Shown here: positions 4,490-63,432 of the stretch, piece by piece
Numbering within the stretch: the stretch's first letter is position 1
Layout: every line of letters starts with the position of its first letter
Assembly (NCBI GenBank): GCA_964291415.2
Contig: OZ219920.1
Location: 544,001 to 608,000 of the forward strand
DNA: 64,000 bases
Direction: 5' to 3'
From: Alphaproteobacteria bacterium
GTDB taxonomy: Bacteria > Pseudomonadota > Alphaproteobacteria > SP197
Notes under the pieces: model-generated
Seen by the model: the letters and a program-made list of their open reading frames with translations, nothing else
Told to the model about the DNA's origin: nothing
Database searches by the model: none
Program-made: the position numbers and the translations under genes

Positions 4490-5755
<1,266 letters not shown>

Positions 5756-5843
5756 GGCTCCTCCGCCATCCTCTGACCGCAATCAGGCGTTCGCGCCTGC
5801 CGGGGAGCCGATCACCCACGAGCGACCCTTGCGGCTGCACCCC

Positions 5844-6062
5844 TCATCGCGCCCCCAGCCTGTCCGCATCCGCCGTCGTGGTGGCCCGGCGCCGCGCCGC
5901 CCATGCGTCCAGATCCGACCGGCAATAGCGCACCCGGTTGCGGAAGCGGTGGAACGCCGGCCCGGCGCCGTTCACGCGGTAGCCGTCGAGCGTGCACGGG
6001 CCGAGGCCGAGATAGGCCGCCGCGCGCCTTGTGTCGAAGAATCCGCCCTCGCCGTTGCCCAT
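5844..6062 (-). CDS. Excisionase/AlpA-like small HTH protein, copy 1
   Basis: FFDTRRAAAYLGLGPCTLDGYRVNGAGPAFHRF.NRVRY.RSDLDAW, typical HTH_17/AlpA pattern. Confidence 0.85.
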   Translation of the reverse strand: MGNGEGGFFDTRRAAAYLGLGPCTLDGYRVNGAGPAFHRFRNRVRYCRSDLDAWAARRRATTTADADRLGAR

Positions 6063-6552
6063 GCCGCCCCCCCTTTCCATTGCAGGACGTGCCGGACCCG
6101 CTGCGGCGCCGACCCCAGCGCCTGCTGAGTACGGCACGCCGGCTGAAGCGAGGGTAGGCGGGGCGGCAGGGTATTCAAAGCGCACGATCAGGAGAACCCC
6201 GGCAGTGCTACGCCGACCTGGCAATTGCGCGCGGCTGACGTACCACCTGCTACCGACCAGCTTTCGGGGATTGCCAGTCGGGCGCCCCAGGCTTGTGCAC
6301 CGGGATCACCCGGGGAGTTCGACGCATCGCGACTTGCCACCGCGGCCAACCTCGAACCGCTGTCCCCGGGGCCGGTAGCTTGGGCATCGGCAAGCAGCGA
6401 TTCCGCAGGCGCAATGCGCACCGCGAACCGCATCCTCAACAGCGTTTCGCTCCGGTTCTCTCCGCTCGTGTCAGGAGCACTCGACGGCGCCGCTCGACAA
6501 CTTCCATCGCATCACCGAACATCGACAGCGTACACGAGCTCGGAGGACACCC

Positions 6553-6828
6553 ATGACCCGATCGGAGCTGTGTGCCCGCGCTGCGGCCCGCTCGTCGCTG
6601 TCAAAGGCCGACGTCGCCGCAGCGCTCGGCGCCCTCACTTCCAGCATTGCCGACGCGCTTGCCGAGGGCGAGACCGTCACCGTCGCCGGATTCGGGAAGT
6701 TCACGGTAAGGACCCGCGCGGCTCGCCAGGGGCGCAATCCCCGCACCGGCGAGCCCGTCGACGTCCCCGCCGCCCGGGTGCCGTCCTTCAAGGCCGCGAA
6801 GGCCCTCCGCGACGCGCTCAACCCATAG
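6553..6828 (+). CDS. HU family DNA-binding protein
   Basis: GFGKFTVRTRAARQGRNPRTGE...RVPSFKAAKALRD; GGAGG RBS. Confidence 0.95.
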   Translation: MTRSELCARAAARSSLSKADVAAALGALTSSIADALAEGETVTVAGFGKFTVRTRAARQGRNPRTGEPVDVPAARVPSFKAAKALRDALNP

Positions 6829-6844
6829 CGGGCCGGATCTGTGG

Positions 6845-7230
6845 ACAGCCATCCGGCTCTTGTCGCGGCAGCGCGGACGCGACCCGGCAGCGCCTTCGCC
6901 ACGGCGCCTCGTCGATACGCGACTGCTTGAACGCAGGAATGTTCAGGGTCCTAGCACCCGGCGCATTTCCACCCGGTGGACCCGCTCTGGCCGACAAGTC
7001 CCGATCATGAACATGTCCTGGCTCGCCCGCTGCGGTTTTGACTGGCGACGCGCCACAGAGTCACATTCGGGGCAGGGGGGAGGCGTAGCGATTTGCCCGA
7101 TTGGACAATCATGGGCATGGGCACCGATCCGAAATCATGCTCCGACGTTGAATCCCCACGCACGAGGGTACCCGCTTGCACATTCCATGCGAATGCCATG
7201 AACCAGTCACCCGTACCGGCACACCCGAGG
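6845..7230 (-). pseudogene. Putative heavily degraded integron-integrase (intI) relic
   Basis: Joining frames on the minus strand gives WFMA...DFG...IVQSGK...RAR.VHDRDLSARAG.RVEMPGA...IDE.AVAKA...VRAAATRAG. The order and spacing resemble IntI, including the integron-specific insertion. It is divergent from the attI-like site. By-eye alignment only. Confidence 0.4.
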
Positions 7231-7330
7231 GCTGGATCATGCGTGGTGATCGGTGAGTCCAGGGGTCGGGCATCTCCAGGCGATGATACTGCGCATGGCA
7301 GATCTGCTCGAAACAGGGTCCAATAGCGTG

Positions 7331-7367
7331 TTATCAGGCGGATGTGCCTGATAATCATTGGTTAGAG
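7331..7367 (+). other. attI-like recombination site (first cassette boundary G|TTAGAG)
   Basis: TGATAAT-CATTG-GTTAGAG (L box, 5 nt, R box). GTTAGAG is the exact complement of R'' CTCTAAC at 8091. It is preceded by the inverted repeat TTATCAGGC...GCCTGATAA. Confidence 0.6.
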
Positions 7368-7394
7368 CGCGCAAATTCAATAGAGGATTACGAC

Positions 7395-8096
7395 ATGGCT
7401 AGATGCACCGCACCAGTACGTGGCCATCGCACAGCGAGCGCGGCAGCCAACTGCCCTGCTTGCGGTGGGCGTTATGGCGGCTATAGGGGTTACAGCGGCT
7501 ACGGGTCGTACTCGCCCTCGTCTTACTCTCCGTCGCGTAACCGTGGCAGCGGTCGGAGCGGCGGCGGATCCAGCCGCACGACACAGCCGCGATGGTCGCG
7601 ACCAGGTTCGTCTGTCATGTACACGCCTGCCGAGGTGCGGACGCTTACACCGATCCGTGAAAACGTCGAGAAACGAGCGACGGTGCCCGATCTTCGTGAC
7701 ACCTTCCTTTGCCACGCTTGGGATGATCGGCAAGGGGCTGCCAAAGAGTTGCACGATCATCTTGAGTCTCGAGGCGTTTCCGTTTGGTTCAGCGAGAAGG
7801 ACATCGTCCTCGGTGCGTCGTTGCTTAGGGAAATCGACAAGGGCTTGGCCAACTCCCGAGTGGGGATCGTGCTGGTGACCCCTGCGTTCCTGCGCCGTGT
7901 CGAGGCAGAGGGTATTGCTGACAAAGAGCTTTCGGCGCTCTTGGCGCGTGATCTGCTCGTTCCTATCGTGCATAACACTACGTATGAAGCACTTCGCGAA
8001 GTTAGTCCATTACTTGGCTCGCGCAGTGGCTTGAGCACCGCAGAAGAGCCCATGGCAGACATTGTGGTAAAACTCGCGGAGTTGGTCGCGCTCTAA
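7395..8096 (+). CDS. TIR-domain protein (TIR_2-like), integron gene cassette 1
   Basis: FLCHAWDD...GVSVWFSEKDIVLGASLLREIDKGLANSRVGIVLVTPAFL...KEL; N-terminal CxxC/His motif and Gly/Ser/Tyr linker; the stop overlaps attC R''. Confidence 0.92.
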   Translation: MARCTAPVRGHRTASAAANCPACGGRYGGYRGYSGYGSYSPSSYSPSRNRGSGRSGGGSSRTTQPRWSRPGSSVMYTPAEVRTLTPIRENVEKRATVPDLRDTFLCHAWDDRQGAAKELHDHLESRGVSVWFSEKDIVLGASLLREIDKGLANSRVGIVLVTPAFLRRVEAEGIADKELSALLARDLLVPIVHNTTYEALREVSPLLGSRSGLSTAEEPMADIVVKLAELVAL

Positions 8097-8178
8097 CAAT
8101 GCCTTGCAACCGACCCGCTTTCCGCTACTTCCCTTCGATCATTCGCTTCAAGCGGGCGGCTGAAGGCAGGCGTTATGT
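8091..8178 (+). other. attC site 1 (88 bp)
   Basis: R'' CTCTAAC, stem GCCTT[G]CAACCG[A]CCCGCTT / AAGCGGGCGGCTGAAGGC with two extrahelical bases, R' GTTATGT. Confidence 0.9.
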
Positions 8179-8207
8179 TCTTCGTGAATTCCTCGACATA
8201 ACAAACG

Positions 8208-9086
8208 ATGAATGAGACGGAATATCAACGCCGTATGGCCCAGATCGATGAGTGGGCTAAAGCGCTAGGTTTTGAGCTGGCAGATCTGATCGAACCAAAT
8301 CCGGCAGATGTGATTTATCATTATACAAACTCTAGTGCACTGATTGGAATGCTTGAATCCGGCAAAGTCTGGGCTACGCATGTAAGCCGGATGAATGATT
8401 CGATGGAATATAAAATCGGGATCGAGTTGGTGGAACGATTGGTGCGGAAAAATATGGAAGGCCAGTTGCGTCAATTGTTCGAACGAGCGATATCCAACCT
8501 TGTGTCCGTAGATACATATATTGCTTGCTACTCATCTGAGGTAAATCAGCTTAGCCAGTGGCGTGCATACGCAGGGCTAGGCGTTGGCTATTGCATAGGG
8601 TTCAAGTCTGGTGATATGGCAACCACAGATGGCAGGATGCCGTTACTCGAAAAAGTCATCTACAGTGAGGAAGTCGCTGAAGCTGTTGTGGTACGCTTGC
8701 TTGGTCGGGTTGAGGAACTCTTGGCAAAAAGTGATTTCGGTGAGGTGGAGGTCGGTTACCTTCTCGGCATGCTGGAAGCAACGTTCAATATCGTGGCATG
8801 TATCATCAAGCATGCGGGATTTAAAGAGGAGGCTGAATACCGCCAGATATACCAACCGTCCATATCCTCGTTGTTGTTGGAAACCAAATTCAGGTCCGGT
8901 CGATATGGTTTAACGCCATATGTTGAGTTTGATTTTCTCAATGAAGGCCGGCTGCCAATTGAGTCGATTACTATTGGGCCATGCGCCGACCCAGATGAAG
9001 AAAATCGCACGCTTGCAGCAATACTGAGTCGGCATGGCTATCAATCTGTCGAACTCCAACAGTCTGGTATTCCTCTACGTGTGTAA
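8208..9086 (+). CDS. DUF2971-family protein, integron gene cassette 2
   Basis: IYHYT, MNDSMEY, CYS...LSQWRAYA...GYCIGF, KHAGFKEEAEYR, ITIGP; low GC relative to the flanks. Confidence 0.88.
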   Translation: MNETEYQRRMAQIDEWAKALGFELADLIEPNPADVIYHYTNSSALIGMLESGKVWATHVSRMNDSMEYKIGIELVERLVRKNMEGQLRQLFERAISNLVSVDTYIACYSSEVNQLSQWRAYAGLGVGYCIGFKSGDMATTDGRMPLLEKVIYSEEVAEAVVVRLLGRVEELLAKSDFGEVEVGYLLGMLEATFNIVACIIKHAGFKEEAEYRQIYQPSISSLLLETKFRSGRYGLTPYVEFDFLNEGRLPIESITIGPCADPDEENRTLAAILSRHGYQSVELQQSGIPLRV

Positions 9087-9113
9087 GATAGAAACAGCAA
9101 TCGTGCAGGACGA

Positions 9114-9173
9114 ATATAACAATTTGCTGCAGCGGACCAGCGTCCCGCTGGCCGCTGAGCACTGTCGTTATGT
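9114..9173 (+). other. attC site 2 (60 bp, 59-base-element-like)
   Basis: R'' ATATAAC, stem GCT[G]CAGCGG[A]CCAGCG / CGCTGGCCGCTGAGC, R' GTTATGT. Confidence 0.92.
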
Positions 9174-9217
9174 GCAGGTAAGTGAGGTCGCAAGGAACAG
9201 GTGCCGGAGAAAATAAT

Positions 9218-9451
9218 ATGTCAAAATCCACATACAGCGTCACAGTCATATATGAAGGTCGAGAAAAGGATTACCGCGATTTCTGGGATCGCAAGATAAA
9301 GGTCAATTCGGACGGGGAAGAGCTTCATCCGGGGCTGGTGGGCTTTACAGAAGTGGTAGAGGCAAAGAATCTAAACGAGGCTATCGCAATCGTACAGAAA
9401 AAGCATCCGGCGCTAATTGTTGCAAGGGACCATTCAGCGAAAGTTGGATGA
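9218..9451 (+). CDS. Hypothetical 77-aa protein, integron gene cassette 3 (no downstream attC seen)
   Basis: Follows attC2 R'; GGAGA RBS; low GC. Confidence 0.75.
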   Translation: MSKSTYSVTVIYEGREKDYRDFWDRKIKVNSDGEELHPGLVGFTEVVEAKNLNEAIAIVQKKHPALIVARDHSAKVG

Positions 9452-9701
9452 TCCGGGTTCTGATTACTTTACGTGAGTCTTTCTGGGGCGCAACTCCCGT
9501 ATGTCGATTGTAACCAACCGATTTATTGAGATTTTGCGTTCGTTTCCGATGGCCTTTGGGGCCGATCGGTGACAAGTGGGGTTTCGGGGTCGGGATTTTG
9601 TCACGGCCGCTCGGTTGCGGGGCCGGAAGCGGGACCGCTCCGCTCGCCGGGTGCGGGTAGGATGTCGTTCTGAACAAACCGGAACCACGGCAGCGCCCTC
9701 C

Positions 9702-9920
9702 TCATCGTGCGCCCAGCCTGTCCGCCTCCGCCGTCGTGGTGGCCCGGCGCCGCGCCGCCCATGCGTCCAGATCCGACCGGCAATAGCGCACCCGGTTGCC
9801 GAAGCGGTGGAACGCCGGCCCGGCGCCGCTCACGCGGTAGCCGTCGAGCGTGCGCGGGCCGAGGCCGAGATAGGCCGCCGCGCGCCTTGTGTCGAAGAAT
9901 CCGCTCTCGTCGCCGCTCAT
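9702..9920 (-). CDS. Excisionase/AlpA-like small HTH protein, copy 2
   Basis: Near-identical to 5844-6062. Confidence 0.85.
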   Translation of the reverse strand: MSGDESGFFDTRRAAAYLGLGPRTLDGYRVSGAGPAFHRFGNRVRYCRSDLDAWAARRRATTTAEADRLGAR

Positions 9921-10638
9921 GCCGTTCCCTCTCGATTGCCGAATGCGCCGGACCTTCCGCACCGCCGGCCCGCTCCCGCCGACGCAGAAAAGGTAGGCGG
10001 AGCCGCGCGGGTGTTCAAAGCCGACGGTTAGGGGAAATCCTCTATTGCCCCGCCGTCCGCGCGCTTGCACGCGCTCGGGCGCGGCGGCCGCGCCTGCGCC
10101 CGCCAGACAGCCATCGCGGGCACGCCCGGCGCCCACGATCCGCCTTCTTGAAGGCAGCGAACCGGGTCACGAGTTGCGGTTCCCTCACGGGCTGACGACG
10201 GCCATGCGATCGACGCGTCTGCCTGGCCGCGGCAGCCGCTGTAGGTGACGGTCGAGAACTGCATTTATTTGCTGGAGTTTGTCGCCTGCGCGCGGCGTTG
10301 GGATGACGTCCTGTTTGGCATTTGAGGGCCTTCTCTGTCGGAGCTGTGGGTAAATGGCCCGGCGCCGCGACCGCCACGAGTCTGGCGGCGGCGGGCCATT
10401 TATCCATAGCGGTCAGCCGTCTCGATTTTGATTTTGCCGGGCTGGCGGCGGTTCCGCGGCCCTGACAGCGAGACCTGCGGAACTAGACTGAGGCCGCTGA
10501 GAACGATGCGGCGCCGGCCCCGTCTGCTTGGTGGCAACGACCGGCGCCGCACCCCCCGAGCCATGCAAGGCGCGGCCCGTATGCGCAGTATCGTGCGCGC
10601 TCGGGCGCGGGTCCACCCCGTTCTCATCGGTTGTCGCG

Positions 10639-25204: not shown

Positions 25205-26083
25205 ATGAGATACCAAAAACGCCCAATGCTAAACCATCTTCACCGGCTGCTGCCGGAAGGGCTGGTTGCGGACGCCGGCTGGTTCACCCGCCTGGGCTAC
25301 CCGAGCTCTCTGCGCAGCCGCTATTGCGCCAGCGGTTGGCTGGAACCTGTGGCGCGGGGGGTGTTTCGGCGCCCGCTGCACAAGCCGGGGATTGAGGCGA
25401 CAACAGTGCCGCTGCGCTGGCAACATATCGTGGTTTCGCTGCAGATGGTGCTGGAACAACCGGTCGCGGTGGGCGGGCGCACGGCGCTGGAACTGCACGG
25501 CTTCGCGCACTACCTGCCGAGCGAGGGGCCGCGGGAGGTTCACCTTTACGGAGACGAACGGGCGCCGGGATGGCTCAGCAAGCTGCCCATCGTCACGCCC
25601 TTCGTCTTTCACAATGCCCGCAAGCTGTTTCGCGTTGAGCCGATCGCGGCCGGTCTCGAACGGCTCAAGTCGGCGATGGCCGTTGAGGGGCCGTCGCACC
25701 AGGCACAGATCCATGGCAGCTTGACTTGGCGGCACTTCGGCGACGGGGACTGGCCCATCGTGATGTCGACGCCGGAACGGGCGGTACTGGAACTGCTGGA
25801 CGAGCTTCCCGGCGGGGAGACGTTCCACCAGGTCGACATGCTCATGGAAGGTCTGGCCGGTCTCAGCCCGAAGCGCACCAGCCGTCTGCTCGGGGAATGC
25901 CGAAGCGTCAAGGTGAAGCGCCTGTTTCTGTGGTTTGCCGAACGCCACGGGCATCCGTGGCTCGATCGCCTCGACCGCGACGGGATCGATCTCGGCAAGG
26001 GAAAGCGTATGCTGGTGCGGGGCGGCAAGCTCGACACGAAGTACCAGATCACGGTTCCGGAAGACCTCGATGCCGGTGGATGA
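25205..26083 (+). CDS. abiEi: Type IV TA antitoxin AbiEi-like
   Basis: GWLEPVARGVF, VGGRTALELHG, STPERAVLELL, CRSVKVKRLFLW. Confidence 0.92.
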   Translation: MRYQKRPMLNHLHRLLPEGLVADAGWFTRLGYPSSLRSRYCASGWLEPVARGVFRRPLHKPGIEATTVPLRWQHIVVSLQMVLEQPVAVGGRTALELHGFAHYLPSEGPREVHLYGDERAPGWLSKLPIVTPFVFHNARKLFRVEPIAAGLERLKSAMAVEGPSHQAQIHGSLTWRHFGDGDWPIVMSTPERAVLELLDELPGGETFHQVDMLMEGLAGLSPKRTSRLLGECRSVKVKRLFLWFAERHGHPWLDRLDRDGIDLGKGKRMLVRGGKLDTKYQITVPEDLDAGG

Positions 26084-27041
26084 GCGATACCGGCGGCAGG
26101 TCGAGCTGCTGGTGCGCACCCTGCCTTACGTTGCCCAGGAGAGGTGCTTCGCGCTGAAGGGCGGGACGGCGATCAACCTGTTCTTCCGAAACCTTCCCCG
26201 GCTGTCGGTCGACATCGACCTCACCTATCTGCCGGTGGCTGACCGGGCACGGTCGCTTGCGGACATCGAGGCCGCGCTGCGACAAATCGGTGAGCGTATC
26301 GAAGGCGCCCTTGCATTCGCCCGCGTTCAGACCGGAGTGCTGAAAGAGGAAGGCACGGTCAACAAGCTCTTCATCCGCGAACGCGGCACGCAGATCAAGG
26401 TCGAGGTCACGCCGGTGTTGCGCGGCTGCGTGTTCGAGGCGGAGGAAAAGGCGGTCTCGGATGCGGTTGAGGAGCAGTTCGGCTTTGCCGCCATTCAGGT
26501 GGTGTCGTTCCCGGACCTGTTCGCCGGCAAGCTGGTGGCGGCGCTCGACCGTCAACATCCGCGTGACCTGTTCGACGTCCATGATCTGCTGTCGAACGAG
26601 GGGATCGACGGCGAGCTCCGCACCGCCTTCATCGTCTACCTGGTGAGCCATCATCGGCCGATCGAGAGGCTGTTGGCGCCGGTGCGCCGGGACATGCGCG
26701 AAGAGTTCGAGCGTGGTCTGGCAGGGATGATGGAGGTTCCCGTCGCGCTGGACGTTCTGGAGCGGACCCGCGAGGAGCTGGTGGCCGCGATTGTCGGCCG
26801 CATGCCTGATGCCCACCGGGAGTTCCTGCTGTCCATCGCGGGCGGGGAACCGCAATGGTCGCTGCTTGGGATGCGCAGCGTCAGTAGCCTTCCCGCAGTG
26901 GAGTGGCGGATGAGGAAGCTCGCACAGCTCGACGAGAGGGAGCGATCGGCGATGGTCCGGAGGATCGAGGCGGCACTGACGGACAGGATCGATCGCGCCT
27001 CCATGCCGACGCCTACTGGTCCCGGTGTTAGCTGTGGATAA
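26070..27041 (+). CDS. abiEii: AbiEii nucleotidyltransferase toxin
   Basis: FALKGGTAINLF..LPRLSVDIDL, GKLVAALDRQHPRDLFD. Confidence 0.94.
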   Translation: MPVDERYRRQVELLVRTLPYVAQERCFALKGGTAINLFFRNLPRLSVDIDLTYLPVADRARSLADIEAALRQIGERIEGALAFARVQTGVLKEEGTVNKLFIRERGTQIKVEVTPVLRGCVFEAEEKAVSDAVEEQFGFAAIQVVSFPDLFAGKLVAALDRQHPRDLFDVHDLLSNEGIDGELRTAFIVYLVSHHRPIERLLAPVRRDMREEFERGLAGMMEVPVALDVLERTREELVAAIVGRMPDAHREFLLSIAGGEPQWSLLGMRSVSSLPAVEWRMRKLAQLDERERSAMVRRIEAALTDRIDRASMPTPTGPGVSCG

Positions 27042-27920
27042 GTGGCCCGCCGCAGCGACCACCGGGAGTCTGGCGGAGGCGGACTGCCTATCCACAGCGG
27101 GCGGCGTGCGGCGAAGTCGTTGTCGGCGTCGGCGGTCATGATCCATCCTTTCATGTGGAAGGCCTTCCGCCAGCCCGTCATTGCGGCATTCCCGAAGGCC
27201 CCCGGACTGCCGCAGGATACGAATGCCTATCTCTCCTTCATCGATGACATGTATTGGAGTGACGCCTATCACTCGTTGTCGATCGAAGGATACCGTGTAA
27301 CGCCCGAACTGATCGAACAGGTGCGTGCAGGTGATTGGGACCCGCACGGGCATGACACCGACCGACAGACCCGCGATGCACTGGCCGCGCGCGGTTACTG
27401 GCAGGCATTTCAGGTTGTCCGAGAGACTGTCGGGCGAGTGATTGAGGGCGCGAATCCCGGCGCCTTGGCCCGTGCCGTTCATCGGGATTGGCATCGAGAA
27501 ATGTTTGAGCCCTGTGTTGCCGCAGGCCTGATCGAAGCTTCGGCGCTTGCCGGCTACCGGAACGACCCGGTTTTCCTGCGCGGATCGCGCCACGTTCCGC
27601 CCCGCTGGGAAGCCGTGCGTGACGCCATACCGGCGCTGTTCGACTTGCTGGAAAACGAACCCGAATCGTCGGTACGCGCCCTCCTGGGGCACTGGCTCTT
27701 CGGTTACATCCACCCCTATCTGGACGGCGACGGGCGCATGACACGCTTCCTCATGAACACAATGCTGGCCTCAGGCGGCTATCCATGGAACATCATCCGC
27801 GTGGAGCACCGCGATCCCTATTTCGCCGCGCTTGAATGCGCCAGCGTTCAACAGGACATAGAACCACTCGCGAGGTTTGTTGCCGACCAGGTGGTGTGGT
27901 CGATGGAGCACGCCAGCTGA
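27042..27920 (+). CDS. Fic-domain protein, probably N-terminally truncated
   Basis: DAYHSLSIEGY; Fic motif HPYLDGDGRMTR (Asn to Asp versus HPFxDGNGRxxR); start uncertain. Confidence 0.82.
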   Translation: MARRSDHRESGGGGLPIHSGRRAAKSLSASAVMIHPFMWKAFRQPVIAAFPKAPGLPQDTNAYLSFIDDMYWSDAYHSLSIEGYRVTPELIEQVRAGDWDPHGHDTDRQTRDALAARGYWQAFQVVRETVGRVIEGANPGALARAVHRDWHREMFEPCVAAGLIEASALAGYRNDPVFLRGSRHVPPRWEAVRDAIPALFDLLENEPESSVRALLGHWLFGYIHPYLDGDGRMTRFLMNTMLASGGYPWNIIRVEHRDPYFAALECASVQQDIEPLARFVADQVVWSMEHAS

Positions 27921-30687: not shown

Positions 30688-31928
30688 ATGTCGACAACCA
30701 CCTTCTTTACCTCGTCAACGGGCTGGAACCTGTTGCACGCCGGCCCGCTCGGCGACCATGTTGATGATTTTGCAAACTGGCTCGCGGATCAGGGCTACGC
30801 GCGACCGACCGGACGTCGGAAGCTCCGACTGGCCGGTCAGTTCAGCCGCTGGCTGGAGGATCAGGGGCTCGGCCCTGCGGCACTGGACGAAGAGCACCTC
30901 GAACGGTTTCGTCGCTTCCGATCGCGCCACGGCAAGTACACGGCCAACGTCATGTCCGACGGTCGGACGCTGTTGACATGGCGCGCGAGTCCGGCCGTCT
31001 GGCGCCGCAAGCAGCCGAACCGTCGTGCGATGACCCGATCGGGGAGACCGTGGACCGGTATGAACGCTTCCTCTTCGACGAGCGCGGCGTAAGCCCGAGA
31101 ACCGTGCAGACTTATCTGTCGAGCGTTCGAGCCTTGTTCGGTGACCGTTTCCACTCCGGATCCCCTGCGGCTCTGGCTCTCCAGGACATCAACCGGTTCA
31201 TTCTCCACTCGTGTCAGCGCCACAGTCCGGCAACGACGCGGGGCCATGTGACGGCGTTGCGCAGTTTCACGGGATATCTGTATCGATCCGGGATCATGGC
31301 CACGGACATTGCCGATGGCATCGCCGGGGTCAGAGCCTGTCGTCTGTCGAACCTGCCCAGGGGGTTGGAGCCCGATCAGGTCCAGGCGGTGCTCGACAGT
31401 TGCGACCGCGGCACGGTCATCGGCCGGCGCGATTACGGCGTTCTGCTGTTGCTGGCGCTCCTCGGGTTGCGGGCCTGCGAGGTCGTCCGCCTGACCCTGG
31501 ACGACATCGACTGGTCGAACGCCGAGATCAGCGTGGTCGGCAAGGGTAGCCGGCGCGATGTTCTGCCCCTGCCCCACGAAGTCGGCGAAGGCCTGGCCGC
31601 GTATCTGCAGGCCGGTCGGCCGAGTTGTGCGACACGCCGTGTGTTCGTCGGGCGCTATGCCCCCGTTCACGGCTTTCAGTCGTCGGCCGCGGTCGGACAT
31701 ATCGTTCGTCGTGCGCTGGCACAGGCCGGAATCGAACGACCCGGCAGGGGCGCGGCCCACCTGTTTCGTCATGCGCTGGCAACCAGAATGCTGCGCAACG
31801 GAGCCTCGCTCGAGGAGATCGGGCAGATCCTGCGACACCAGCATCCCGACAGCACTCGGATCTACGCCAAGATCGATCTTGACGCCCTTCGCCCCCTGGC
31901 TCCGGCGTGGCCGGGAGGTGCGGCATGA
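30688..31928 (+). pseudogene. ritA: RIT tyrosine recombinase A, frameshift near 30981
   Basis: N-terminus in the 30688 frame, remainder in the 30978 frame; LGLRACEV, GKG, HLFRH, LRH, TRIY. Confidence 0.85.
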
Positions 31929-32851
31929 CAAGCCTTCGTATCCTCTGTGAGGACTATCTCGCCTTCCGCCGCGCCCTGGGAACCAAGCTCATCATGACGC
32001 GCGGACTCCTGCTCCAGTTCATCGCCTTTCTGGCGCAGCGCGAGGCTCCGTTCATCACCGCCGCGTTGGCGCTCGAGTGGGCCAGCACGCCGCAAGGCGT
32101 GCAGCAGGAATGGCGAGCGCGCCGGCTGTCGGAAGTCCGTCAGTTCGCCCGCTATGTTCACGCGCTCGATCCGCGCCACGAGATCCCGCCTCAGCGGCTC
32201 CTGCCCTATCGGCGCCAGCGGCCCCAGCCCTACATCTACAGCGATAGTGAGATCGAAGATCTGATCGGCGCCGCGCGTGACCTGTCGGGACGACTCCGCC
32301 CGCGGACCTGTTCGACGATGCTGGGCCTGCTGGCGGTGACCGGCATGCGCAGCGGCGAAGTGGTCCGTCTCGACCGCGACGATGTCGATCTCCGGCGCGG
32401 CGTGCTGACGATCCGCGAGAGCAAGTTCGCCAAGTCGCGTGTCAACCTGTGCCATGACACAACCGTGCGCGCTTTGGTCGACTACGCTGCCTGGCGCGAT
32501 GAGCTCTGTCCTCGGCCGCATTCTCCCGCCTTCTTCCTGAACCAACGCGCGAATCGGATCGACAAGGCACGCTTCCGCATGACGTTCAAGGACCTGGCGT
32601 GTCAGACCGGGTTGCGCGACCCCGCGGCCTCCCGAGGGCCCCGCCTTCACGAGCGCCATACCTTCTCCGTCAGAACTCTGATCCGATGGTATCGCGACGG
32701 CGTCGACATCGAGCGCCACCTGCCTCGTCTCTCCACCTGGCTCGGCCATAGCTCCATTGCCGGTTCCTACTGGTACCTTACAGCGGTCCCCGAGCTCATG
32801 GCGCTTGCCGCCCGGCGTCTCGATGAACAGCAGGGGAGGCGCAGTTCATGA
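31925..32851 (+). CDS. ritB: RIT tyrosine recombinase B
   Basis: TGMRSGE, SKFAKSR, LSTWLGH...YWYLTAVPEL; the HxxR box reads RLHERH (one codon short). Confidence 0.9.
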   Translation: MTSLRILCEDYLAFRRALGTKLIMTRGLLLQFIAFLAQREAPFITAALALEWASTPQGVQQEWRARRLSEVRQFARYVHALDPRHEIPPQRLLPYRRQRPQPYIYSDSEIEDLIGAARDLSGRLRPRTCSTMLGLLAVTGMRSGEVVRLDRDDVDLRRGVLTIRESKFAKSRVNLCHDTTVRALVDYAAWRDELCPRPHSPAFFLNQRANRIDKARFRMTFKDLACQTGLRDPAASRGPRLHERHTFSVRTLIRWYRDGVDIERHLPRLSTWLGHSSIAGSYWYLTAVPELMALAARRLDEQQGRRSS

Positions 32852-33846
32852 GTGCGATCGCCGACTTCGCCAGGCTGCTGACCCTGTTCTTCTCCAGCTA
32901 CCTCATGCAGCAGCGTCAGGTCAGCCCCAACACCATCGCCAGCTACCGCGACACCTTCCGGCTGCTCGTCACCTTTGCCAACAAGGTCCTCGGCAAGCCG
33001 CCGCAGGACCTGTCATTCGAGGATCTCGACGCCGACGTTATCGGCGACTTCCTCCATCATCTCGAGCACGAGCGCGGCAACGACGTCCGTACCCGCAATG
33101 CCCGCCTGGCGGCCATCCGTTCCCTGTTCGGTTATGTCGCCATGCACGAACCGCAGCATGCGGCCCTGGCTCAGCGGGTCCTGGCCATACCGACCAAACG
33201 CCATACCCGACGAGAGGTCGACTTCCTCAATCGCGCGGAGAGCGAGGCCCTCCTGCGGGCGCCGGATCAGACCAGCTGGGTCGGGCGACGCGACTACTGC
33301 TTGTTGCTGGTGGCCCTGCAGACAGGCATGCGGAGCTCAGAGATCATCGCCCTGCGCCACGCTGATGTCCGCCTTGACGACGGCGCCCACGTCCGCTGTC
33401 ACGGCAAGGGGCGCAAGGAGCGATCGATCCCGTTGCGCCGGGACTCGGTCGCGGCACTCGACGCGTGGTTCAAGGAGCGTGGCGGCGAGCCCTGTGACCC
33501 GGTCTTCCCCAACCAGCGCGGCAGACCGCTCACCCATGACAGCTTCGCCTATCTCCTGGCTCGCAACCTGGCCGCCGCGCGGTCAGGCTGCCCGTCGCTG
33601 GGAAGCAAGCGGGTGACACCCCATACCCTGCGGCACAGCGCCGCCATGGACCTGCTTCACAACGGCGTTGACCGCGCCACCATCGCCTTGTGGCTGGGCC
33701 ACGAATCCGTCGAGACCACCTACATCTATCTGCATGCCGATCGCGAATTGAAGGAGCGGGCCATGGCCAGAACCGTCCCCACCGGAGCCCCAATGCGAAG
33801 GTACGAACCCGAGGACAACGTCCTGGCGTTCCTGAACGGCTTGTGA
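32848..33846 (+). CDS. ritC: RIT tyrosine recombinase C
   Basis: TGMRSSE, GKGRKER, HTLRH, WLGHESVETTYIY. Confidence 0.94.
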   Translation: MSAIADFARLLTLFFSSYLMQQRQVSPNTIASYRDTFRLLVTFANKVLGKPPQDLSFEDLDADVIGDFLHHLEHERGNDVRTRNARLAAIRSLFGYVAMHEPQHAALAQRVLAIPTKRHTRREVDFLNRAESEALLRAPDQTSWVGRRDYCLLLVALQTGMRSSEIIALRHADVRLDDGAHVRCHGKGRKERSIPLRRDSVAALDAWFKERGGEPCDPVFPNQRGRPLTHDSFAYLLARNLAAARSGCPSLGSKRVTPHTLRHSAAMDLLHNGVDRATIALWLGHESVETTYIYLHADRELKERAMARTVPTGAPMRRYEPEDNVLAFLNGL

Positions 33847-62166: not shown

Positions 62167-63432
62167 GTGACTAGCGAAGCGAGTGCGGGCGAACGCCCTG
62201 CCACGCTCAGAGCGATCCAGGCCCGCAACTATCGTAGCCTGCGGCACGTTGACTTGCGATTCGACGGGAACTTCTACGTCCTCGTCGGTCCGAACGGTAG
62301 CGGAAAGAGCACGCTATTGGACGCGATTGCGTTCTTGACTGACTTCGTTCAGCAGGGACTGGAACGGGCGGTGGGGAAGCGCACGCGAAACTTCCAGGAT
62401 CTCGTGTGGGGCCGCCCGGCTAAGTCGCCTAGCTTCGAACTGGCGGCGGAGTTCGCAGTGGGTACTCAGATGCTTCGCTACGAGTTGCGGGTCGAGGAAT
62501 CCAGCGATGGCGTAAAGGTGGCGCGCGAGAACGGATACCTTGCCCGCCTCACGCCTAAGGAGTTTGAGATAAGCGCAAGATCCAGTTCTATTGTTCAGAC
62601 ATCCGACAGCAGGCCGCAACAAATCTTTGGCCGGAACGAGCGCCGCAACGTCGCGTGGATCCGCTCCGAGAACAAGGAAGGGGGCGAAATTCAAATCGCC
62701 CACCGCCACAACGAGAACAGTGTGATTGATTTCCTTTCGATGTTGCACGGAGTTTCGCTCAGCGACGAAGAAGAGATGGACTTCTCCGTCTCGTTGCGGA
62801 TCACGAACACGCTAAAGCGGCACGGAGTGCAGCGCCTCCAACTGGACGGCCGGAAACTCAGGCAAGCGTCGAAGTCGAACGGGGACGATGGTAGCCGGTT
62901 GGCGGACGACGGCAGCAATTTGCCCCGCGTGTTGGAAAGGCTGAAGTCGGATCCCAAGGAGTGGGAGAGGTGGCTTGAGCACGTGCGCTTCGCATCGCCG
63001 GAGCTTGAGGGGATCAGAATCGTTCATCGAGAGGACGACCGCCACGACTACCTGATGGTCAAACACGCCGGCGTCGAAGTGCCGTCTTGGGGCGTCTCAG
63101 AAGGCACGCTGCGGTTGTTCGCCCTGACCGTGATCGCCTACCTTCAGGAGTTTCCTTTGGCGTATCTGTTGGAGGAGCCTGAGAATGGCATCCATCCGAT
63201 GGCCATTGAGTTTGCCTACCAGGCTTTGTCGGCAGTCTACGGCACACAAGTCTTCATCGCCTCCCACTCGCCGACGTTGCTGCGCTGCGTCGAAGTAGAC
63301 GAGGTCCTGTGTTTCGGTTACGACCCGAAAAGAGGGACGGCAATCGTTCCCGGTGGTGAGCATCCGCGATTAGGGGAATGGCGAGGTTCAGTGGACGATA
63401 GCGTGTTCTGGGCGGCAGACATCCTGTCGTGA
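62167..63432 (+). CDS. ABC/AAA_21-type ATPase, MAD3-like
   Basis: NYRSL, GPNGSGKS, SEGTLR, LLEEPENGIHP, ASHSP; coupled to the MAD4-like gene. Confidence 0.85.
   Translation: MTSEASAGERPATLRAIQARNYRSLRHVDLRFDGNFYVLVGPNGSGKSTLLDAIAFLTDFVQQGLERAVGKRTRNFQDLVWGRPAKSPSFELAAEFAVGTQMLRYELRVEESSDGVKVARENGYLARLTPKEFEISARSSSIVQTSDSRPQQIFGRNERRNVAWIRSENKEGGEIQIAHRHNENSVIDFLSMLHGVSLSDEEEMDFSVSLRITNTLKRHGVQRLQLDGRKLRQASKSNGDDGSRLADDGSNLPRVLERLKSDPKEWERWLEHVRFASPELEGIRIVHREDDRHDYLMVKHAGVEVPSWGVSEGTLRLFALTVIAYLQEFPLAYLLEEPENGIHPMAIEFAYQALSAVYGTQVFIASHSPTLLRCVEVDEVLCFGYDPKRGTAIVPGGEHPRLGEWRGSVDDSVFWAADILS

Follow-up and report, generated by a model that had tools for sequence, protein, structure and literature searches.

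A probable stranded array of integron-type cassettes with candidate single-gene defence functions in an alphaproteobacterial genome

Recent work has shown that compact anti-phage genes are stored in integron cassettes, for the most part in Gammaproteobacteria whose integrases are functional. In the available text of one preprint, cassettes with ThsB homologues protect against phages (10.1101/2024.07.02.601719). For Alphaproteobacteria, the accessible part of the 2016 paper on attC site clusters that have no integron-integrase (CALIN) gives no integron, In0 or CALIN in 243 genomes (PMC4889954), and that of a later survey gives 6 complete integrons (PMC9024848). A further preprint, as far as its accessible text goes, describes cassette insertion at widely scattered genomic positions, so-called attG sites (10.1101/2022.09.11.507474). 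Proteins with a DUF2971 domain are presented as a DarT-like ADP-ribosyltransferase family in the available text of PMC12522546, and one of them, Aristaios, a 316-aa protein of a lactococcal plasmid, as a single-gene abortive-infection anti-phage system in that of PMC11381338. Here we analyse a 64,000-nt stretch of an alphaproteobacterial genome (contig OZ219920.1, 544,001-608,000; hereafter the window, to which all coordinates refer), in which three small genes, encoding a TIR protein, a DUF2971 protein and a 77-aa protein, lie in a row between and beside two attC sites. Our conclusion is that these are probably three integron-type cassettes that an integron integrase made and mobilised elsewhere and that are now stranded as a CALIN, two of them with putative single-gene defence functions. 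The kind of element is already known; the host group and the first docking site are unusual, and the locus looks like the same cassette currency reaching a lineage in which integron parts are very rare.

Two attC sites and the cassette boundaries

The case for cassettes begins with the two attC sites (attC1 and attC2, Table 1), each of which has an inverse core (..AAC) and a core (GTT..) able to pair and flanking an imperfect palindrome. When their bottom strands are folded as single-stranded DNA and compared with 200 shuffles, both give imperfect hairpins, with z = -3.8 for attC2 (0/200 shuffles as good) and z = -2.4 for attC1 (2/200). Two single-base bulges, 6 bp apart, lie in the 3' half of the bottom strand of each site. 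The extrahelical bases of attC sites are usually G and T; here they are C and T, and the same layout occurs in one integrase-adjacent attC site of the training set described below. Since Rfam has no attC family (a search of 6500-10200 returned only a chance-level match inside attC1, at 22 bits against a gathering score of 42), covariance models were built for the purpose. Model R1 was made from the two window sites. Integron integrases (NCBIfam TIGR02249) were then sought in 401 genomes of the host's phylum and located in 84 of them, and a 12 kb cassette-side stretch was taken beside 20 of these integrases; R1 found 42 further matches at E<=1 in 10 of these 20 stretches, all 42 on the strand expected for cassettes. 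A second model, R2, was built from 27 R1 matches (E<=0.01, seven other genomes) and contains no window sequence. Run with filters off, it assigns 60.0 bits to attC1 and 56.6 bits to attC2, nothing else in the 64 kb exceeds 10.3 bits, and the two sites are its only matches at E<=1 in the whole 4.44-Mb genome. Both sites proposed in the initial annotation, with their extrahelical bases and complementary boxes, were therefore recovered by a covariance model of our own. The description of the sites as textbook examples is apt for attC1 and attC2 and fails at the two ends of the array, where R2 gives at most 1.2 bits to the first site (an 84-nt hairpin, here called element E) and at most 4 bits to anything 3' of the 77-aa gene, where a third attC site was sought.

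A circularised cassette rebuilds an attC site from its own first bases, and this signature is present in two of the three cassettes. Cassette 1 begins TTAGAGC, the exact complement of the inverse core of its own attC site, GCTCTAAC (8/8 bases), and the start of cassette 2, TTATGTTC, complements its own inverse-core region at 8/9 bases; for cassette 3, no inverse core complementing its start was found downstream. The TIR gene has the same cassette start and inverse core in a Methylophaga metagenome-assembled genome (MAG; L010) and in a Burkholderiaceae MAG that holds 12 attC matches (L023). Independent evidence comes from contigs of public sequencing runs (X1, X2, X9, X19 and others) aligned to 7000-9800. 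One sponge-metagenome contig of 2906 nt spans 7290-9464 with 76 differences. In an X2 contig, position 7360 is joined straight to 9167, the four shared letters being the GTTA of both cores, and in an X1 contig cassette 3 (9167-9452) immediately follows a variant of element E. These joints and breaks identify 7361|7362 and 9167|9168 as real exchange points and show that cassette 3 moves without the other two. Taken together, these data show attC1 and attC2 to be true attC sites and the G|TT crossovers to be the cassette boundaries; the same cassettes are also found in different orders and in further organisms.

No integron integrase was found in the host. Neither the window nor the rest of the genome has a protein reaching the TIGR02249 cut-off (best 76 bits against 265), in line with the earlier statement that the window lacks a functional integrase, and a tblastn search with 10 IntI proteins revealed no integrase remnant near the array (matches within 5000-10500 all had E>1). 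In the host class the cut-off is passed in 1/401 genomes, by a copy with two in-frame stops, as compared with 84/401 for the phylum; R2 at E<=1e-4 detects attC sites in 4/151 class genomes, this one included. An integron would indeed be unusual for an alphaproteobacterial host. The cassettes are in none of the 22 same-genus genomes searched. A complete integron has intI and attI beside its array, which this locus lacks; what it has is two attC sites on the same strand, <4 kb from each other and without a neighbouring integrase, the arrangement of a CALIN. Because the genome holds no integrase and such parts are so rare in the class, we describe the locus as a small CALIN in an integron-poor host group.

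The three open reading frames (ORFs) are intact, co-oriented and low in GC, as had been noted before: they have 47-60% GC against ~72% in the left flank, in a host of ~70% GC (59% for the TIR cassette as a whole, 47-48% for the other two), and host-level GC resumes past ~9600. A plasmid collection contained no near match to 5600-10400. The metatranscriptome run X19 holds pieces 88-98% similar to the TIR and DUF2971 cassettes, which is not evidence of transcription.

Table 1. Features of the cassette array and its borders (window coordinates).
Feature	Position	Strand	Remarks
HTH_17 (AlpA-type) gene	5844..6224	-	paralogue of 9702-10136
Low-GC leader	7080..7361	+	57% GC; precedes cassette 1; X1 contig begins exactly at 7080
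Element E, 84-nt hairpin	7282..7365	+	core-like GTTAG at its end; cassettes start at its G|TT (7361|7362)
Cassette 1 (TIR)	7362..8172	+	starts TTAGAGC; X19 contig match begins at 7361
TIR ORF, 233 aa	7395..8096	+	Pfam TIR_2, E 1.2e-15
attC1, 88 nt	8091..8178	+	inverse core CTCTAAC overlapping TIR stop codon; core GTTATGT 8172-8178
Cassette 2 (DUF2971)	8173..9167	+	starts TTATGTTC; two X2 contigs diverge at 9170, just past attC2
DUF2971 ORF, 292 aa	8208..9086	+	Pfam 32.5 bits against cut-off of 22, E 2.3e-7
attC2, 60 nt	9114..9173	+	inverse core ATATAAC; core GTTATGT 9167-9173
Cassette 3 (77-aa ORF)	9168..9464	+	left edge 9167 from X1 and X2 contigs; cross-sample similarity stops at 9452 or 9464
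77-aa ORF	9218..9451	+	no Pfam or PADLOC family
Second repeated element	9495..9593	+	right edge of low-GC island; depth 3x baseline in X9, several short contigs
Second HTH_17 gene	9702..10136	-	paralogue of 5844-6224

The surroundings are rich in mobile elements (two IS21 copies, one IS630, one IS66 and three tandem tyrosine recombinases), with defence-type genes nearby (AbiEi/AbiEii, Fic, a Phd antitoxin). The HTH_17 paralogues form a 238-nt direct repeat of 93% identity (5837-6074 and 9695-9932) that brackets an HU gene (6553-6828) and the cassette island. The three tyrosine-recombinase genes (Phage_integrase x3) overlap and adjoin the IS66 transposase at 30978-33843, and similar trios match two further places in the genome (C4 ~471-475 kb; C1 ~1176-1180 kb). 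An AbiEi antitoxin, an AbiEii nucleotidyltransferase toxin and a Fic-domain gene follow each other at 25205-27917, and an AAA_21/AAA_15 ATPase lies at 62167-63429; overall, the window resembles a defence and mobile-element island. Near its left end (~2150-2290), a run of a 15-nt unit, read as repeated GSARL in one frame, lies between a large, repetitive surface-type ORF (1-2112, -) and a LuxR-like gene.

The three passenger genes

The 233-aa TIR protein consists of an N-terminal Cys-His-Cys-Cys motif, a Tyr/Ser/Gly-rich linker and a C-terminal TIR domain. It matches the PADLOC ThsB model PDLC00424 over its full length (E 1.2e-125; residues 1-233 align with positions 1-234 of a 234-position model), and its sequence matches in the PDB are bacterial TIR NADase/Tcp-type proteins (E 3.5e-16 to 2.5e-13). 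In an alignment of 30 sequences, Cys4, His11, Cys20 and Cys23 are invariant, which suggests a putative zinc knuckle, and the linker is conserved in composition. E178, the putative catalytic Glu by comparison with the familiar motif (the HMMER pairwise alignments are gapped there), lies within an invariant K-E-L-S-A-L-L stretch and is conserved in 30/30 sequences. More than 8000 relatives were scored, with at least 120 listed at 71-98% identity. Among species-representative genomes, 386 stretches encode a relative, and the best 80 of these 386, to which all counts of TIR loci refer, have 62-82% identity and come from Proteobacteria, Bacteroidota, Firmicutes, Actinobacteria, Acidobacteriota, Planctomycetota, Verrucomicrobiota, Chloroflexi, Myxococcota and others. 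With the N-terminal 100 residues as query, 227 matches were found among 1.84 billion representatives; a Pfam scan of the 13 longer ones gave five TIR proteins, five without a family and three with an unrelated family. We found no convincing fusion of this N-terminus to another effector among these matches, and it occurs essentially only with this TIR domain. The ESM Atlas yielded TIR clusters only.

The composition of the TIR genes is informative about the history of the family. In the 73 loci with enough flank, gene GC correlates with host GC (r = 0.79; hosts from 28% to 70% GC), and GC at third codon positions (GC3, 0.17-0.78) tracks flanking GC (r = 0.78), with the protein still 62-82% identical. 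Because gene GC follows host GC while the protein is conserved, the family appears to have been present in many lineages for a long time and to evolve under strong purifying selection. The copy in the window, with 60% GC in a ~70% host, looks recently acquired. No neighbour is conserved across the 80 loci, the largest cluster of neighbours (5/80 loci) being recombinases. The nearest genes of at least 100 aa number 149, of which 64 have a Pfam family, and 19 of the 149 (in 18 loci) belong to families that we regard as typical of defence: Abi_C, AbiJ, AbiGi, three ThsB_TIR, TIR_2, a Pycsar-type TIR, SMODS, STAND NTPase and KAP, as well as OLD-type ATPases, AAA_13, BglII, a type I specificity subunit, Csy4 and BrxL. 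The neighbours further include genes for toxin-antitoxin systems and for conjugation or recombination. No SIR2, SLOG or Macro protein occurs among the 149, nor in the window. Sites of the attC type occur in 10/80 of these loci, with 26/26 matches co-oriented. Two loci (L017, 911-3180; L074, 1424-3125) have a TIR-family gene followed by a ThsB_TIR gene; the next gene in L074 encodes a small protein with hydrophobic stretches, and a 294-aa protein of the same cluster occupies the corresponding position in L017. The arrangement may be a multi-TIR system, and PADLOC's placing of the family under ThsB could be due to it.

The second passenger belongs to DUF2971 (PF11185, 32.5 bits against a gathering score of 22) and also matches PADLOC family PDC-S31 (E 8.9e-7). 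Of its 159 relatives, at least 120 were listed, with 33-94% identity. H38, Y121, E208 and E210 are invariant in 30/30 sequences and correspond to the H-Y-ExE active-site motif of PMC12522546. The predicted structure (pLDDT 90) has three DarT structures as its top Foldseek matches (best E 0.014), and an unfiltered structural search of 48,161 chains placed four DarT chains and a tRNA 2'-phosphotransferase (Tpt1) in the top five (Z 6.2-7.0, 116-153 residues aligned). The protein is accordingly predicted, from motif and model, to be a DarT-like ADP-ribosyltransferase. Among 80 related metagenome loci, 10 have attC sites, 5 of the 10 closest included, and 18/18 matches are co-oriented.

The 77-aa protein has 34 relatives with 73-95% identity, of which 33 are 76-77 aa long. 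It is predicted with confidence to form a small alpha/beta fold (pLDDT 95), with no structural match in the PDB at E<=0.001 and none in Pfam or PADLOC, and was not found in 400 other genomes of the phylum with the window protein as query. Three close relatives are on contigs equal in size to those of close DUF2971 relatives (1496, 5455 and 57558 nt), and these equal sizes suggest that the DUF2971 and 77-aa cassettes often travel as neighbours.

In the initial annotation the three genes were treated as one candidate anti-phage module. This view is not supported: 1/80 TIR loci have a DUF2971 gene near the TIR homologue, 1/80 DUF2971 loci have a nearby TIR gene, of just 30% identity, and the genes are separated by cassette boundaries. 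The three genes are independent passengers, each with its own boundaries. One metagenome contig (L156, 2710-4416) carries a DUF2971 cassette, an attC match and then a different TIR gene (30% identical to the window TIR domain); here DUF2971 and TIR genes are neighbours in a second cassette array, independently of the window. The proposal that the TIR and DUF2971 genes are each single-gene anti-phage candidates is on the other hand a reasonable one. Judging by homology, neighbourhood and published relatives, we consider it fairly likely that both are good candidates for NAD-using abortive infection by a single gene.

Origin and function of the array

The sequence of events that we favour would be as follows. 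The cassettes from 7362 to ~9464 would have been made and moved elsewhere by an integron integrase, and then stranded as a CALIN in a stretch rich in mobile elements and defence genes, in a genome without such an integrase. Cassette 1 would encode a stand-alone TIR enzyme that cleaves or cyclises NAD+ upon self-association, giving one-gene abortive infection; cassette 2 a DarT-like ADP-ribosyltransferase whose NAD+-dependent modification of nucleic acid (or possibly protein) would stop growth on infection, as in Aristaios; and cassette 3 may be an unrelated passenger. Without an integrase the array would be frozen, and expression would have to come from read-through. Several results weigh against this reading. 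As regards the cassettes, 10 of the 20 integrase-adjacent stretches contain no R1 match; the R2 training sites were chosen with R1, so that this test is not fully independent, except as to where and on which strand the sites lie next to integrases; neither the first nor the last site of the array is canonical; and no sigma-70-like promoter is present in 6900-9700 (0 found, 1.9 expected). As regards the genes, attC sites were not seen in 70/80 TIR loci nor in 70/80 DUF2971 loci, so neither family is tied to integrons; a ThsB-type match on its own, without ThsA, does not make a Thoeris system; in PADLOC, PDC-S31 and PDC-S66 have the rank of candidate families only; the structural matches of the DUF2971 protein are modest (Z <= 7) and below the tool's level for safe calls, though their theme is consistent; and the composition of the TIR genes points to long-standing, strong purifying selection, which is unusual for fast-evolving immune sensors.

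The last of these points also speaks for an alternative that we find rather unlikely, namely that the cassettes are genuine and the TIR protein is a conserved NAD-consuming or signalling enzyme with a role other than phage defence. That role might be to interfere with the TIR signalling of a eukaryotic host, an idea put forward for TcpB- and PdTIR-type proteins, or it might be physiological or interbacterial. The closest solved relatives of the protein by sequence are bacterial TIR proteins of this TcpB/PdTIR type, it lacks a partner gene, near-identical copies occur in sponge-metagenome runs, and the extreme conservation and host-adapted codon composition fit such a role. Against it stand the neighbours, among which families of defence and mobile elements abound (of the 64 with a Pfam family, 19 are defence-typical), the spread of the family across free-living soil, water and anaerobic lineages, and the presence in PADLOC of a full-length family model among those for ThsB. 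A very improbable alternative would combine the TIR gene with the DUF2971 gene, and perhaps also with the 77-aa gene, in one Thoeris-like system with a TIR signal producer and an ADP-ribosyltransferase effector. Both enzymes use NAD+, the block 7290-9464 is intact in another sample, and the equal-sized contigs suggest joint travel of the DUF2971 and 77-aa relatives in three cases; however, an attC site lies between each pair, the TIR-DUF2971 proximity is confined to 1/80 loci, the 80 more distant DUF2971 loci contain no 77-aa homologue and one distant TIR, cassette 3 occurs without the other two on X1 and X2 contigs, and SIR2, SLOG or Macro proteins account for 0/149 of the nearest TIR neighbours.

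A different kind of alternative concerns how the cassettes arrived. The whole 2.5-kb low-GC block (~7080-9565) could have come as a unit, via another site-specific recombinase or by homologous recombination between the HTH_17 paralogues, leaving the cassette structure as a fossil. We consider this rather unlikely. In its favour, the GC shift (7080-9600) is wider than the cassettes, an X9 sequence ending at 9565 runs on into letters like those of 7078-7096, as if the right end were joined to the left, a weak 10-nt direct repeat (8/10 bases) is present at both edges, and the window has many other mobile elements, the tandem tyrosine recombinases among them. The end-to-end join is nevertheless a single 30-letter loose end, the edge repeat could be chance, and the left-hand homology in two same-genus genomes stops at the G|TT crossover and not at 7080. 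Since it concerns arrival only, this alternative is compatible with genuine cassettes, and the stranding of integrase-made cassettes remains the reading that we prefer.

The left-hand homology leads to element E itself. It folds into a hairpin with an inverse-core-like GCTCGAAAC able to pair with GTTAGAGC, and its R2 score rules it out as a canonical attC site. In X1 and X2 its depth is 10-20x that of neighbouring bins, so it is multicopy there, with sequences that diverge on both sides (loose ends), and some metagenomic copies end in the canonical GTTAGGC. In the two same-genus genomes homology stops at 7362; one of them has compensatory changes in the hairpin, and 200 nt of the leader (7163-7362) are 82% identical to one such genome (L144). 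In that genome (G419:C27; 1000-2359 of L144) the shared leader lies just downstream of an AbiEi/AbiEii-like pair, judged by eye from translations. A similar hairpin is upstream of the TIR gene in a Gemmatimonadetes MAG (L043). Element E was not found beside any integrase or elsewhere in the fetched loci (the same-genus L144 aside) or in viral contigs, and pattern matches in 3/400 other genomes of the phylum all proved to be chance. It may be an odd attC, or an attI from an integron class as yet unknown, or else a secondary site of the attG type. A bolder joint reading, which we hold to be quite doubtful, takes element E as an undescribed integron docking site, i.e. a conserved multicopy 84-nt hairpin, neither canonical attC nor known attI, that would recombine with attC at G|TT, and the TIR protein as an ancient one-gene NAD-based immune module in which the low-complexity linker would drive the self-association that switches the enzyme on. 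If the docking-site part were true, cassette arrays could settle in genomes and lineages without integron integrases. The points of greatest interest are this non-canonical start and the TIR family's unusual degree of conservation, because of which a role outside defence stays in play. The locus offers a stand-alone TIR protein whose family is very large, conserved to an unusual degree and apparently unstudied, together with a cassette-borne enzyme predicted to be DarT-like and a non-canonical site of evident cassette exchange.

Comparison with described systems

At the level of the proteins, the TIR gene product resembles ThsB of Thoeris in having a TIR_2 domain with what appears to be the conserved Glu motif and a full-length PADLOC match, but neither here nor in the 80 related loci is there an adjacent ThsA of the SIR2/SLOG or Macro type. 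It shares the TIR_2 domain and this putative Glu motif with the AbTir, PdTIR and TcpB-type NADases as well. Tcp-type TIR proteins contain a coiled-coil region, and in its place the window protein has the Cys-His-Cys-Cys motif and the Tyr/Ser/Gly linker. The DUF2971 protein is like Aristaios, by description, in being a single DUF2971 protein of ~300 aa; it differs in being cassette-borne, and plasmid DUF2971 proteins are ~30% identical to it. Lactococcus is absent from the 25 of 582 plasmid DUF2971 records that were listed and from the ten commonest genera. With DarT of DarTG it has in common the ExE motif and, by prediction, an ADP-ribosyltransferase-like fold nearest to DarT; a DarG-type antitoxin is missing here.

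At the level of the array, the likeness to CALIN, as these are set out in the available text of PMC4889954, is close: at least two co-oriented attC sites <4 kb apart, no integrase nearby and no integrase pseudogene within reach, and cassettes without a database function. The present case differs in belonging to a class with none in 243 genomes, in starting at a non-canonical multicopy element and in missing its last attC site. Like the phage-defence cassettes of two preprints (10.1101/2024.07.02.601719 and 10.1101/2024.07.02.601686), it has small, streamlined defence-type genes as cassettes; according to the accessible text, a second gene is present in the published ThsB cassettes, in contrast to the lone TIR gene here, and the published arrays are in functional integrons of Gammaproteobacteria. 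ADP-ribosyl and TIR terms do not appear in the text available for either preprint. As at the attG sites of 10.1101/2022.09.11.507474, in the part accessible to us, cassettes are found here outside attI and attC, at a site resembling neither; element E differs from these in being a conserved 84-nt sequence present in many metagenomic contexts, and is in this respect more like a dedicated docking site.

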